Shown: piece by piece, positions 2,397 through 55,384 of the stretch
Layout: each line of letters starts with the position of its first letter
Numbering within the stretch: position 1 is the first letter of the stretch
Assembly: GCA_951406725.2 (NCBI GenBank)
Contig: OX597814.1
Location: forward strand, 31,806,001-31,870,000
From: Octopus vulgaris
Taxonomy: Eukaryota
Reading direction: 5' to 3'
DNA: 64,000 nucleotides
Program-made: the position numbers and the translations under genes
Notes under the pieces: generated by a model
Told to the model about the DNA's origin: nothing
Seen by the model: the letters and a program-made list of their open reading frames with translations, nothing else
Databases searched by the model: none

Positions 2397-2845
2397 AGGA
2401 GCAAAAATACTGGAGAATCAGTATACACAACGTGGTAAAATTATGAGTTGAAAATATGGAAAAACGTATATAAAAAGTGGAAGAGAATTGCCTTCGTTTC
2501 ACATAGTTTAATATCTATTTATAACTTTTATATATATATATATATATATATATATATATATATATATAAGTATATATACACATACATATTTTATGGATAT
2601 CGTGATATCCAACCGGTTTTCGCTATTTACATTAGCTTTCAAGTGACATTGTGAATCGATCATTTCTTGTGACACAGGAGTTTTGCCATTTTGGATACAT
2701 GAAAAGTAAGAATGAGTCTAGAGAGTGGCCAAAGGGAGGCAACAGTTGGCAACTAACTCCTCATTATATTTCTTGAAATAGGAATGTGTAAGGATCAGGT
2801 GGTCAAGTTTGTATATTAAGGTGTGGTCTGTACTTTTGTATGAGC

Positions 2846-3407
2846 AGGTTTCCTTCGATGTCATCAACCTCTACACTAGCATTCCACATGACTACGGATT
2901 AGAGGCAATAAAATTCTGGTTAGAAAATTACCCCGAAATTCACCCGGACCGTATGAACCAGACTTTTGACATTCAATCTCTGAAGTTCATCCTACAAAAC
3001 AATTACTTCCTATTCGAAGAAAACATACTACCGCCAAAAATGTGGTATTGCGATGCGAACAAAAGTAGCACCTGACCTTGCGAACCTAAAATTCGGCTTC
3101 TTTAAATTTACCCAATACGAACTTTCGTTCCAGAAACTTGGACTCCATTTTACCAGTATATAAGAGAAAACTGGAAAAGGTATGTAGACGATCATTTTAT
3201 CATTTGGAATGCAACCTATGATAAACTTCTGGATTTCAAATCTACACTGAACAATATAAACTCTAATATTCAATTTACAATGGAATATAACAAGGAAAGC
3301 TCCCATTTCTGGACATTTTGATTATAAAAAAAATCCAAGAACCAAATTGCAACTGACATCTACTACAAACCAACAGACTCAAAACAGTATCTCCTTTTCA
3401 GTTCATG
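2846..3407 (+). mobile_element. Penelope-like element reverse transcriptase fragment (frameshifted)
   Basis: Motifs SFDVINLYTSIPHDYGLEAI, FILQNNYFLF, GIAMRTKVAPDLANL, WKRYVDD, NIQFTME, DIYYKPTDSKQYLLFSSC. Confidence 0.9.
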
Positions 3408-3739
3408 CCAAAACAATGCGAAGCGCATTGTAACCAGCGATGTATTGCAACATCTGATAGCCTGGTCGGTCACAGTGATATATATATATATATATATATA
3501 TATATATATATATATATATATATATATATATATATATATATATATATAAATGTTTGGACTAATGAGTATATGTCTATTAGTGTGTTGAGTGAAGTACATT
3601 CACAGTTTGGAAATGCACCACCCAGGGGAAAGAGATTAATAACGTATCTTTAACAAAAAAAGAACATAAAATTCCAGTCATAAAATGAAAGAAAGAAGAA
3701 CATAGACGCACTCGAAACCGCACGAGTACTATTTCTTAC

Positions 3740-4290
3740 TGCTTTTTTTACCAGAACTCTCTCCTCGGGAAAGGTCATCCAGGGCCACATTCCAAACCAG
3801 GCCTTTCGTTTCAGGACAAGAACATATCCGACTCCAACATAATTTATACTCTACAAAGCTCAGGTGGGACACCTGATGGAGTATTGCTGTCATACATAAA
3901 CGTTACACTGCGGCACACCTCCTTACAGATGTCATTAAGAAAAGGCCGTCTGAATGACTGCCATAAATTTACACGGACAGAATCCAACCTTTCACACACA
4001 AACACTCTTTCCTTTCTCTGCCTTTTTTCTCCTTCATGTACGTAGAACTCGATAGCCTCATGTCAAGTGTATTTAGGTATTTCTGAGCCACTCATCACTT
4101 CAATTCTAACTAATTTCGTGGTCTTTAAACTCCTTAGTAGCTGCAATAATCAAGAACACCTGTACTCCTTTCTCAGACCAAGAGTTCTCTGCATTTTCTT
4201 TCCTGCTTTGTTTTCCGCATGGATGTTGAACTGCAAAGTTTCGAGAGGCATATTAAAATATGAAACTCACCAGTCCTAATGGGTCTAAGA
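3740..4290 (+). mobile_element. Highly decayed LINE RT C-terminal fragment (L2/CR1/Jockey-like)
   Basis: ILYKAQVGHLMEYCCHT at ~3847-3897 resembles the LYKAQVRPxMEYCxHVW thumb-region motif. Confidence 0.5.
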
Positions 4291-5799
4291 AGTCCTTGAA
4301 AACTACCCCTTCCTTGAGACACGGAAATTAAAAAGTATGGTAAGCAGCTGTACAATATAGAAACAAAATTCAGTAGGCAAAAACAATAAGCGTTAAAGTT
4401 TTCTAATGCCATTTAAACCACGATTAATACATACACACACATGCATACATACATGCATATATATGTGCGTGTGTATGATATATATATATATATATATATA
4501 TGTATGTATGTATATATGTATATATATATATAAATACATACATATATATATATGTATATATATATAAATAAATACATACAAATATATATCATAAAACAAC
4601 TTAGGGATACATTTAGATTAATTGAGAAAAAAACCCAGAAAGTTTAAGAGCTTTTATAGACTAATACATCATATATACAAAAAGAAATAATAGATCATCA
4701 GTATATATGTGTATGTGTGTGTTTGTGTCTGTGTCTGTGGGAGTGCGTGTGTTTGTGTGTGTGTGTATGTATGTATGTATGTATGTATGTATGTATGTGT
4801 ATTTATGTGCGGCGTAGAGATAAAGAAAAATGAAGAGAAAGAGACAGAAAGAAAATGTGCGTGAGTGAGAGAGAGAGAATATGTGTGTGAGAGAGTGTAC
4901 TTTTGAACACTTTTAAATAGTGAGACCGAGAAGTACATATATCAATACAACTCCATATGGGTACATTTGTATATGAATGCGAGAATGAATGTGAGTTTAT
5001 ATGTACATGGACACTACTCATATACGTACACTTTCTGAGCACAGATGTTCCTTCAAACTTACAAAAAAAGAAAACAAAAGAAAAATAACTAACGTTGTGT
5101 TTTATGTACACTGACTTCCTTGTTTGTACTATTTTGTTGCTGAACAGAAATACATTATCTTTCACCCTAACTTCTTTTCGTTGTAAGTAAATAATAAATA
5201 GAAACGCAGTTTTTTAAAAAATGGCTACAAAATACTAAAGTTTAGCAATATATTTTTTAAATGATCTGCTAAGTATCGATGTTGAAAAAAAACAAAAAAA
5301 AAAACATTGTAAACTCTTTCTATAATTTCGTTTCTATATTTAAATAAATGGTCTTCGCTATGTAATTTTAAAAATATTAAGTAAAATCAGTAATGGAAGA
5401 TAAAATAGTAAAATAAATACGCCAACCCTCAATTACTCACTTGTAGACTATGGTAAAATGTTTTCCATGGGAGAAAACCCTGAAATATTAGTTCTAAAAT
5501 ATTTCGGAAATTTAAAAAATTTTATGAAGTAACATTCTGGTCGAGAAGTTAGCATCAAAGCAATTACGTGTTTCCGTTATACTTTCACAATATGGCATAT
5601 TAAATGAGTGTATGCGTGTGTATATAGACTAAAGTTGTCAAGAACTCAATTGTCAGTTAAACACATTTGAAATCTGCAGAGTACACAATGTATGAAAGCG
5701 TTAATTTTGTTAAAATTCTATAATAAAAAACGTGAAAACCAGACTGTTTTAACTTTATTCAACTGATACACACACATGTATATGTCTTGCAAACAACTT

Positions 5800-6190
5800 G
5801 CACATGCAAGTGCTACCAGTTAAAAGCTCCGTATATCGGAAGCTAGCAAGTGTATGGGGTCATCAGGAGTGAATGCGCGCCGTTTCGGGGCCTACCTCAC
5901 AACGGCATCAATGCGCACCGGCCCTCACTGATATGAGGCCCCGCTTGCTAGATCAGCTGGTTATGAAGAACTCAATATACTTCTAGCCATCGCTCATCGT
6001 CTCTTTTTAACCAAATCCAGTGGCTAGCCTTCTCCACTGTAGATTGGATATCAGTCATGGTGGTATTGACTTTACGATGAGTTAGGCCTAGCGATAACAA
6101 GAGTCGTCTCACGCTGTGTCCTACAAACCCTCTTCATCCGACTTCGATAGGAAAATGTTCCGCTTTCCAGCCTGCGTCTTCTCCATCACA
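5800..6190 (-). mobile_element. 3' end of a Hero-type (restriction-like endonuclease) non-LTR retrotransposon
   Basis: Minus strand reads GWKAEHFPIEVG*RGFVGHSVRRLLLSLGL...VEKASHWIWLKRDDERW, matching the PIEVGCRGF...AEKASxWLWLKR C-terminus of Hero elements. Structured 3' UTR follows. Confidence 0.75.
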
Positions 6191-53902: not shown

Positions 53903-54236
53903 TGACGTCATCAATGTTTTGACCAATCGTTTCGTTAGGTGACTTTAATCAAGTGGAACGGGACGTCATCATTATTTTGACCAATCGCTGCATTATAACT
54001 CCCTCTTGTTTGTTTCCTGTCTTGACCAGTCGCTTCGTTAGTCAAGCATAGCGGGACGTCATCCAGATTCTGCCCAATCACGACTTATAGCTACATTAGA
54101 TCTGCCCCCTGTCTGTACTTGTTAGGTGACTATTCAAGCAGAAAAGGACGTCATCAATATTCTGACTAATGACTGTCCCCTGTTTGTATCCTGTCCATTC
54201 TAGCAGAGCTAGACGTCATCAACTTGTTGACCAATC
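53903..54236. promoter_or_regulatory. Array of five GACGTCATC-N10-CCAAT (CRE-like + CCAAT box) modules
   Basis: GACGTC at 53904, 53962, 54055, 54147 and 54212. CCAAT (once CTAAT) starts exactly 19 bp after each. Confidence 0.6.
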
Positions 54237-54702
54237 AGAATCGGGTCTGACCCTTAGCTGTATCGTATGTATCAGGGTCAGATTTGCACGAAAGAATTTT
54301 TTTCCCTTTTTTACTAAGGCATATTTCCGTCAGAGTGAGTGTCTGTTTGAAGTAGCGGCCGTGGTGAAATTTGGTTCTCCTTTTCGGAGGACTTATCTTT
54401 TGTTTTAGTATTCCTGGCCCAGGGTGTTTAAACTTGGTTATATATATATAACCAGGGTGTTTAAACTTGGTTATATATATATAACTAATGTACGATAAAA
54501 AATTTTTCGGGAAAAAAATTATATCAATGGCCAGCATATCAAAAAATACCTTTAAAGGTTAAATTTATAAATAATTTACAAGATAAGGGCAAAAGAAAAA
54601 TTCTAATGCCAAATATGCCGAAAAAAAGACTAAAATTGTCAATAACCATTATAATTTATGCGTCTCGAAACAAACCGATAGAAATTTCTAAAAAATTCGT
54701 TA

Positions 54703-54763
54703 TTACCGTATTGGTCCAATTTCGGGATTAATTCATAAGAAATTTTCCCCTCTTCATCGGCAA
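54703..54763 (-). ncRNA. Type I hammerhead motif (variant base at C3), inverted copy
   Basis: TTGCCG-ATGAAGA-GGGG...TCCC-GAAA-TTGGACCAA-TA^CGGTAA. Confidence 0.65.
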
Positions 54764-55321
54764 ATACGCGAGATATAAGTAAAAAACTTACTCATATCCA
54801 TGGAAAAAGCAAGCACTAAGTCCTGAGCAGACCTAAGTACCCCAAATATATTCAAAATAGAAAAATCTTCGGCACATCTCGAGACACGTGTGATTCGAAC
54901 TAGAAACAGAATAATGAATTTTTTAGAAATTTCTATCGGTTTGTTTCGAGACGCATAAATTATAATGGTTATTGACAATTTTTGTCTTTTTTCGGCTTAT
55001 TAGGCATTAGAATTTTTCTTTTGCACTTATCTTGTAAATTATTTATAAATTTGACCTTTAAAGGTATTTTTTGATATGCTGGCCATTGATAAAAAGTTTT
55101 TCTCCCGAAAAAAATTTTATCCTACATTAGTTATAAATTGAATAGTGTTCACTTCCGGATTCTCTCACACTGTGAAAGTTTCTAGTTCGAATCACACGTG
55201 TCTCGAAATGTGCCGAAGATTTTTCTATTTTTGATATATTTGGGGTACTTAGGTCTGCTCAGGACTTAGTGCTTGCTTTTTCCATTGGTATGAGTAAGTT
55301 TTTCACTTATATCTCGCGTAT

Positions 55322-55384
55322 TTGCCGTTGAAGAGGGGGAAACATTTCTTATGAATTAACCCCGAAATTGGACCAATACGGCAA
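55322..55384 (+). ncRNA. Type I hammerhead motif (variant base at C3)
   Basis: TTGCCG-TTGAAGA-GGGG...CCCC-GAAA-TTGGACCAA-TA^CGGCAA. Confidence 0.7.

Follow-up and report, generated by a model that had tools for sequence, protein, structure and literature searches.

INTRODUCTION

Hammerhead ribozymes with a short stem III reportedly cleave as dimers, as the title of a study by Lunse, Weinberg, and Breaker has it. Among the systems closest to the one considered here, minimal hammerheads with a covariant U3-A8 core have been described (PMC4209133), and a double-hammerhead dimer model has been published (PMC4209133; PMC6765202). Penelope-like elements have been described as leaving partial tandems and inverted 5' pieces, with a bias toward microsatellites (10.1101/2021.04.23.441226). 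We analyzed a 64-kb stretch of the Octopus vulgaris genome (G000:C1:31806001-31870000; assembly of 2.8 Gb in 227 contigs; 35% GC and rich in (TA)n runs), referred to as the window throughout. We found that it holds 14 hammerhead-derived motifs. The best explanation, in which we have good confidence, is that they are type I hammerheads of many independent families, with a self-complementary helix III that likely allows a double hammerhead to form.

RESULTS

Fourteen motifs in the window have type I hammerhead architecture

Thirteen of the 14 motifs were found by homology search with a library of 44 motifs, which gave 0 matches in each of three shuffles of a 1.4-Mb blind sample (140 stretches of 10 kb). 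The 14th is the CAATTG motif at 11787-11860. The motifs and the repeats that carry them are listed below (ORF, open reading frame).

1844..1884, plus strand: relic of the second ACGT-type minimal family, in which A6 is retained in 0 of 15 sampled copies
2601..2652, minus strand: hammerhead-like motif with a variant core (2605 family), 3'-terminal in a Penelope-like family; core TTGAAAA, CCGG preceded by an extra A
11787..11860, plus strand: CAATTG hammerhead; core boxes intact, long helix II, helix I broken beside the core
13102..13229, minus strand: decayed copy of the 13095 family, which has a CTGATGA core, a helix II region of ~85 nt, and the insert CAGCTG
24602..24636, minus strand: ACGT-type minimal hammerhead; GAAACGT, bulged A before helix II, U4 changed to C
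26084..26147, plus strand: family C hammerhead; insert TCACATGTGA, 496-bp unit, A10.1-C11.1 mismatch fixed in its subfamily
31394..31479, minus strand: decayed copy of the 31403 family; 5' helix I and C3 lost, family insert CGATCG
40684..41400, plus strand: family A retrozyme-like array, ~1.5 units of a 480-bp non-coding tandem repeat
40734..40779, plus strand: intact type I hammerhead, family A, copy 1; perfect core, 6-bp helix I, helix III insert TCACTGTGA
41214..41259, plus strand: intact hammerhead, family A, copy 2, 480 bp downstream of copy 1; perfect core, 6-bp helix I, TCACTGTGA
41580..41614, minus strand: second copy of the minimal family of 24602, by homology
44258..44317, minus strand: decayed copy of the 44258 family, downstream of a Penelope-like ORF remnant at 44439-45016 (minus strand)
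53479..53532, minus strand: U3-A8-core hammerhead of the 53487 family, a very young Penelope-like family; insert CATG, weak helix I
54560..55527, no strand assigned: family B insertion with an inverted arm, terminating at a (TA)n run
54703..54763, minus strand: family B hammerhead located in that insertion's inverted arm; TTGGACCAA, C3 changed
55322..55384, plus strand: family B hammerhead; insert TTGGACCAA, C3 changed in the window copy

As the type I core we took C3UGANGA9, G12AAA, and U16.1-H17, or the U3-A8 covariant. Perfect core boxes are present at 40734, 41214, and 11787, and the U3-A8 version is present at 53487. The canonical core is restored in homologs of family B and of the motifs at 44258, 13095, and 31403; it is non-canonical in the 2605 family and in most ACGT-type copies. 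Family representatives have three helices with an open helix I (helix I, 4 to 7 bp; helix II, at least 4 bp). Only the two family A motifs are wholly intact in both core and helices. Judged by core and three-helix architecture, the window motifs are type I hammerheads, for which self-cleavage after H17 is predicted; in the family A array, the expected cut falls after 40773. An Rfam search of the window gave 0 family matches at the gathering score, which weakens no claim other than membership in an Rfam model; the corresponding E-value search returned mostly (TA)n matches to microRNA models (best 150 of 275). Microsatellites dominated the output of a repeat search of the window.

An earlier note on this DNA had described a diverse hammerhead repertoire, five sites of which it took to be decayed, and had proposed a comparison with shuffled sequence. 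The diversity was borne out, with every palindrome listed there present in the window. In the comparison, the clear motifs stood above background: a type I hammerhead descriptor gave five matches with a score of at least 9 (40734 and 41214, 55322 and 54703, and 26084), versus 0.125 in 40 local dinucleotide shuffles, and two perfect cores, versus 0.05. Degenerate sites were nearly at background when up to two core mismatches were allowed (38 matches in the window versus 28.3), and so homology alone rescues them. This last count is what favors reading the degenerate sites as chance matches in AT-rich DNA, to which we give next to no credence. Each of the five is a member of a repeat family built like a hammerhead; for three, the canonical core reappears in homologs, and for two, the core is covariant and the helices are paired.

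The homologs also show which of the five are decayed. Among those of the 13095 site, the core is kept in 17 of 21 and GAAACAGCTGT in 18 of 21. For 31403, the core is kept in 4 of 6 homologs and the exact CGATCG box in 2 of 6. At 44258, CTGANGAG is kept in 21 of 31 distinct homologs, and the majority insert, CCTTGGG, is lost from the window copy. The 53487 and 2605 sites belong to variant-core families and are not decayed. The former has 40 other places at 99% identity, so its TTGATAA core, the U3-A8 covariant of PMC4209133, is a family trait; these near-identical places and the abundant U3-A8 class rule out a decayed copy. At 2605, helices I and II are good, and the TTGAAAA core with the extra A before CCGG is the majority state. 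Because the whole family has these features, ribozyme activity of 2605 is doubtful. We concluded that chance is refuted as an explanation for 44258, 13095, 31403, and 53487, with the ribozyme status of 2605 remaining in doubt.

Some candidates were left out of the count. The CAATTG at 59460 has no core and no homolog among the loci compared, and the candidates at 5668, 20724, 25593, 59152, and 61754 were also set aside. A possible relic lies at 25560-25615 (plus strand), with a CGATCG insert and one homolog, and another at 5668-5709 (plus strand), with a CTGATGA-type box in two homologs and no clear 3' half. The repeat at 20675-20745 (plus strand) has GAAACAGCTGTA and a matching helix I, with no recognizable CTGANGA box in three homologs. 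Its GAA is sequestered by a hairpin, and it could be a dead relic or a rearranged motif.

Helix III inserts are self-complementary and covary

On the 1.4-Mb sample, we used a descriptor blind to helix III pairing. It gave 22 motifs with a C3-G8 core versus 1.5 in shuffles, although these are not independent, five of them lying in one stretch. We found that 14 of the 17 inserts of at least 4 nt were fully self-complementary (G-U allowed), compared with 3 of 90 shuffle matches. The U-core descriptor gave a weaker excess when no palindrome was required (13 matches versus 8.4 in shuffles), and therefore only the five palindromic U-core matches were used. Of the 60 pairs that close on fewer than 3 nt in 35 family representatives, 46 are Watson-Crick, versus 26% by chance; the representatives were picked by hand, which may bias this figure. 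We also examined 70 core-selected genome matches (30 loci plus 40 chosen from 70 further listed matches, with many repeats of common families skipped). Under a strict script 29 of these fold, 19 with helices of at least 4 bp, and 12 of the 19 are self-complementary.

The pattern of the U3-A8 class is common in this genome (5,230 matches, versus 197 for the reversed pattern). When the four bases of the insert were left unspecified, perfect palindromes made up 92 of the first 100 matches listed, counted by hand (CCGG, 45; CGCG, 30; CATG, 15; CTAG, 1; TATA, 1). Two families with a near-identical helix I differ in that one has C3-G8 and the other U3-A8, a covariation of the core. Some U3-A8 hammerheads sit in 362-bp tandem arrays (L279 and L353).

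At least 20 different inserts occur among the families, and some differ by compensatory changes. In sister lineages of family B, TTGGACCAA and TTGATTCAA differ by a G-C to A-T change across a 1-nt center, a pair that a monomer could not form. Both partners change in the closely similar elements with CAATTG, CGATTG, and CGATCG, and the center base is free in CTCGGAG, CTCAGAG, and CTCCGAG. Covariation at pairs that no monomer could form lends support to the double-hammerhead model in the literature. Dimerization through helix III, which the earlier note had raised as a condition, is thus our best reading, given the self-complementarity, the covariation, and the published model.

Families A and C have the layout of non-LTR retrozymes

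Families A and C both show the layout of retrozymes that lack long terminal repeats (non-LTR retrozymes), that is, dispersed tandem non-coding units with one type I hammerhead each (480 bp in A and 496 bp in C). Genome-wide, family A has dispersed and tandem copies, the full-length ones 93 to 99% identical, with at least 223 matches (from 39 scored of 967 candidates). Inverted pieces are frequent, with a shared end near unit position 372, and one array, on the contig of the window, has ~30 units. Families A and C are sisters: their units are ~62% alike, and their outer arms are identical. In the young 496-bp subfamily of C, the A10.1-C11.1 mismatch is present in 14 of 14 copies and the perfect 10-nt palindrome TCACATGTGA in 13 of 14, which rules out TCACATGTGA as a private mutation of TCACAGGTGA. 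For the motif at 11787-11860, with CAATTG, there are 14 genome matches, one of them a homolog with an intact core. Several insertions terminate at (TA)n runs, which mask target-site duplications; the window holds 40 such runs.

Helix II regions of 55 to 100 nt, far above the canonical length, occur in many families (13102-13229 and 11787-11860; L213 and L285). In L285 (G000:C10:95000001-95010000), at least three hammerhead families crowd 10 kb with nested tandem and inverted copies. Short interspersed tRNA-like repeats are also abundant in the window (7974-8200, 17521-18107, 43170-43299, 50938-51258, and 52108-52591), some as tandem units of 184 to 185 bp.

Three families follow Penelope-like ORFs

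Three of the five families formerly seen as degenerate (2605, 53487, and 44258) follow Penelope-like GIY-YIG ORFs. Using seven queries, we found ORF pieces in all three families, at 18 of 20 loci for 2605, 11 of 20 for 53487, and 14 of 25 for 44258, versus 5 of the 140 blind 10-kb stretches. The queries were drawn from these same loci and the window, and the 44258 count includes the window locus, the source of one query. Pfam GIY-YIG scored above its cutoff in L167 (53487 family) and L162 (2605 family), and in L167 the GIY-YIG ORF (E value, 8.5e-7) ends ~880 nt upstream of the motif. The position of the motif 3' of the ORF on the same strand was checked in L167, in L162, and in the window for 44258 and for a fragment at 21123. 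The last of these and its ORF lie outside the 14 motifs.

21461..23080, minus strand: broken Penelope-like ORF; reverse transcriptase (RT)-like motifs by eye, GIY-YIG Pfam E value of 0.018 (below cutoff)
21123..21136, minus strand: truncated remnant of a second-ACGT-type motif, ~330 nt behind this ORF

The piece at 53423-54438 is a 5'-truncated 1-kb part of the very young Penelope-like family, 98 to 99% identical to other copies. Several GACGTCA/CCAAT-like repeats at 53900-54240, seen by eye, may be a promoter region.

A double hammerhead is favored over cleavage as monomers

By our energy estimates, inserts of 2 to 4 nt cannot form a stable monomer helix III. In the predicted family A monomer, the palindrome arm traps the core, and for inserts of 9 to 10 nt a tandem dimer is favored by ~9 to 11 kcal/mol, an advantage that is overestimated because a 12-nt linker was used. 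In the mechanism that we favor, two neighboring motifs in one tandem transcript would fold through helices III and I into a double hammerhead, which would cut out a unit-length RNA; this RNA would be circularized and then reinserted by the RT and endonuclease of a Penelope-like element. We infer transcription, cleavage, circularization, and reinsertion from published systems. Four contig sets of presumed RNA origin showed neither joints nor piled-up ends, which speaks neither for nor against these steps.

Several results weigh against this reading. Three of the 17 long inserts in the sample are not self-complementary, the covariation amounts to a handful of independent events, and relatives in family C have the insert TCACAGGTGA, with a non-palindromic AG center. 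Single-strand folding of nine window motifs was in no case clearly better than that of shuffles (z from -1.8 to +1.0). A monomer helix III of 4 bp lies within reach of families A, B, and C, at 1.5 to 3 kcal/mol above the minimum-energy fold, and retrozyme monomers of invertebrates (coral and mussel) cleave (PMC7229834). Penelope-like ORF pieces, searched for with the seven queries in short flanks, were found beside family A at 0 of 30 loci, beside family C and the B sister at 0 of 12, and beside the 13095 family at 1 of 20. For family B, the same search gave ORF pieces at 3 of 30 loci, with an upstream position on the same strand confirmed only in L097. Since ORF pieces were not found beside A, C, and the B sister and were rare for 13095, we only infer the mobilizing partner of these families. 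Finally, altered bases in the core or helix II have not kept the two most abundant families or the young C subfamily from spreading.

The low-energy monomer fold and the cleaving retrozyme monomers leave dimer dependence unproven for A, B, and C in spite of their self-complementarity. These families could cleave mainly as monomers, like the coral and mussel retrozymes, with the palindromes forming hairpins that have an ancestral symmetric loop. A stem of 4 bp with a loop of 3 to 4 nt would allow this, many copies of B occur singly or inverted instead of in tandem, and the center of TCACAGGTGA is non-complementary. In contrast, the G-C to A-T change across the 1-nt center of B would be worthless in a monomer, and the families with 2- to 4-nt inserts have no stable monomer helix III. 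We consider cleavage mainly as monomers unlikely, while giving it more weight than any other alternative to the double hammerhead.

Altered cores in abundant families

The two ACGT-type families are the most abundant in the sample, with 25 and 15 relics per 1.4 Mb. In the family of the 24602 motif, U4 is changed to C in 8 of 10 sampled copies, and in the second family A6 is lost in all 15 sampled copies. From their sequences, both appear to have been amplified with impaired or variant ribozymes, and most genomic copies of the hammerheads are dead relics. Cleavage may therefore be dispensable for these families and for the young C subfamily. The extreme form of this idea is that most motifs are passengers, the elements now spreading without cleavage and the palindromes being inherited relics. 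The two ACGT-type families fit it, as do the non-canonical core of the 2605 family and the low number of fully intact window motifs (2 of 14). Yet most copies of family A, which is young and forms arrays, have a perfect motif, and covariation in helices I, II, and III and between C3-G8 and U3-A8 reflects selection over lineages. We regard a general passenger status as distinctly unlikely and retain the double hammerhead as the best explanation.

A family-specific code in the palindrome is not supported

The earlier note had suggested that the palindrome could act as a family-specific pairing code. We computed the helix III penalty for all 595 pairs of the 35 representatives and found a median of 10 kcal/mol. 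The two cores of a double hammerhead obtain their cleavage strands from each other, and by this topology helix I is exchanged as well. The helix I closing pair is impossible in 430 of the 595 pairs, and the full-dimer penalty is below 2 kcal/mol in only 2 pairs, both with a near-identical helix I. Different palindromes are thus predicted to be incompatible for the most part, which we read as a side effect of drift. The series CAATTG, CGATTG, and CGATCG has a penalty of zero between neighbors and 6.3 kcal/mol between its ends, a pattern that drift under a self-matching constraint would leave. Each lineage would be constrained only to match itself, so that its palindrome could drift, as from CAATTG through CGATTG to CGATCG by a G-U step, and lineages would thereby lose compatibility at helix III and helix I as a by-product.

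In a selected code, families would diversify their palindromes to avoid cross-pairing with, and cross-cleavage by, the RNAs of other families. The high median penalty, the finding of only two near-compatible full dimers, and the variety of at least 20 inserts are in keeping with such selection. Against it, orthogonality is greater among random palindromes of equal lengths: 17 of the 595 natural pairs fall below 1 kcal/mol, versus 2.9 ± 1.9 for random ones, a rough comparison in which the natural count is inflated by kin and imperfect single copies. Identical palindromes (CAATTG, CGCG, and CATGTG) occur in families with unrelated helices I and II. The sisters A and C are still compatible at helix III (-0.2 kcal/mol for TCACTGTGA with TCACAGGTGA). 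TCACTGTGA and TCACATGTGA, two of the five palindromes in the earlier note, belong to sister families with shared outer arms. Helix I by itself keeps families apart, and having tandem copies in one transcript would favor self-pairing without any code. Selection for a code is in our view very improbable. A bolder proposal would make helices III and I a two-part self-recognition key under diversifying selection, with intermolecular dimers of co-expressed retroelement RNAs and palindrome switches that evade cross-cleavage or parasitism by sisters, in a genome whose hammerhead load would be among the densest recorded; we see only a slight chance that it holds. We concluded that specificity exists but that the palindrome alone does not define it and that selection for it is not supported.

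The genome-wide load is large

With a narrow pattern, requiring a short helix II, a perfect C3-G8 core, a G following A9, and a C preceding GAAA, we obtained 21,174 matches genome-wide, versus 3,348 for the reversed pattern. Extrapolation from the sample, which is rough and involves clustered matches, gives ~4×10^4 intact C3-G8 motifs and ~1×10^4 intact U3-A8 motifs, or roughly 18 per Mb. The 128 homology relics in the 1.4 Mb (0 in the three shuffles) correspond to ~2.6×10^5 relics genome-wide, a lower bound set by the 44-motif library. The load foreseen in the earlier note is large by these estimates, yet extrapolating from the window overestimates it about twofold: its density of 13 to 14 motifs per 64 kb is ~2 times the sample mean of 0.91 per 10 kb. 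Published counts, made with differing descriptors, are 126,247 in the axolotl, ~5,000 in a mussel, and ~9,000 minimal motifs in Xenopus tropicalis (PMC7229834; PMC4209133), and the axolotl genome has 28 Gb (10.64898/2026.07.22.740005). Although descriptors differ, the axolotl count implies a density several times below the ~18 intact motifs per Mb estimated here. Our literature search, at the level of titles and listings, found no hammerhead count for a cephalopod; the supplements of PMC4209133 and PMC7229834 may cover cephalopods.

DISCUSSION

Both the kind of element and the dimer idea are already published, and this genome is a rich new instance of them. Long palindromes or heterodimer tests may already be covered by Lunse et al. 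or by the supplements of PMC4209133 and PMC7229834. New here are the palindromes, which number more than 20 and form a natural series in which one or two compensatory steps separate sister families: CAATTG/CGATTG/CGATCG, TTGGACCAA/TTGATTCAA, and CCGG/CGCG/CATG on the U3-A8 core. The series lends comparative backing to the double-hammerhead fold and could supply assays of monomers, dimers, and heterodimers.

Compared with the minimal hammerheads of metazoan Penelope-like pLTRs (PMC4209133, by Cervera and De la Pena, 2014), the motifs described here are likewise type I, with palindromic positions 15.2 to 16.2 and loop 3. They share the bulged base before helix II, the U3-A8 covariant core, and the proposed dimer. 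As described there, many variable consensus families occur per genome, mostly as single truncated copies, with inverted pairs 100 to 700 bp apart. Unlike those hammerheads, many families here have inserts of 6 to 10 nt and helix II regions of up to ~85 to 100 nt, and the density estimated here is above the counts quoted there, with the descriptors differing.

Families A and C resemble the metazoan non-LTR retrozymes (Cervera and de la Pena 2020, PMC7229834; Li et al., 10.64898/2026.07.22.740005), which are AT-rich, non-coding tandem repeats with one type I hammerhead per unit. Those retrozymes likewise range from dimers to long arrays and have been proposed as non-autonomous partners of Penelope-like elements (PMC7229834; 10.64898/2026.07.22.740005). 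For the retrozymes described here, seen in DNA, circular RNA is a prediction. Their units of 480 to 496 bp are above the first-described range of 150 to 450 bp (PMC7229834) and within the later range of 51 to 972 bp (10.64898/2026.07.22.740005). In combining a palindromic stem III loop with a tandem arrangement, these motifs also resemble the double hammerheads of newt RNA and of ASBVd (PMC6466107; PMC6765202).

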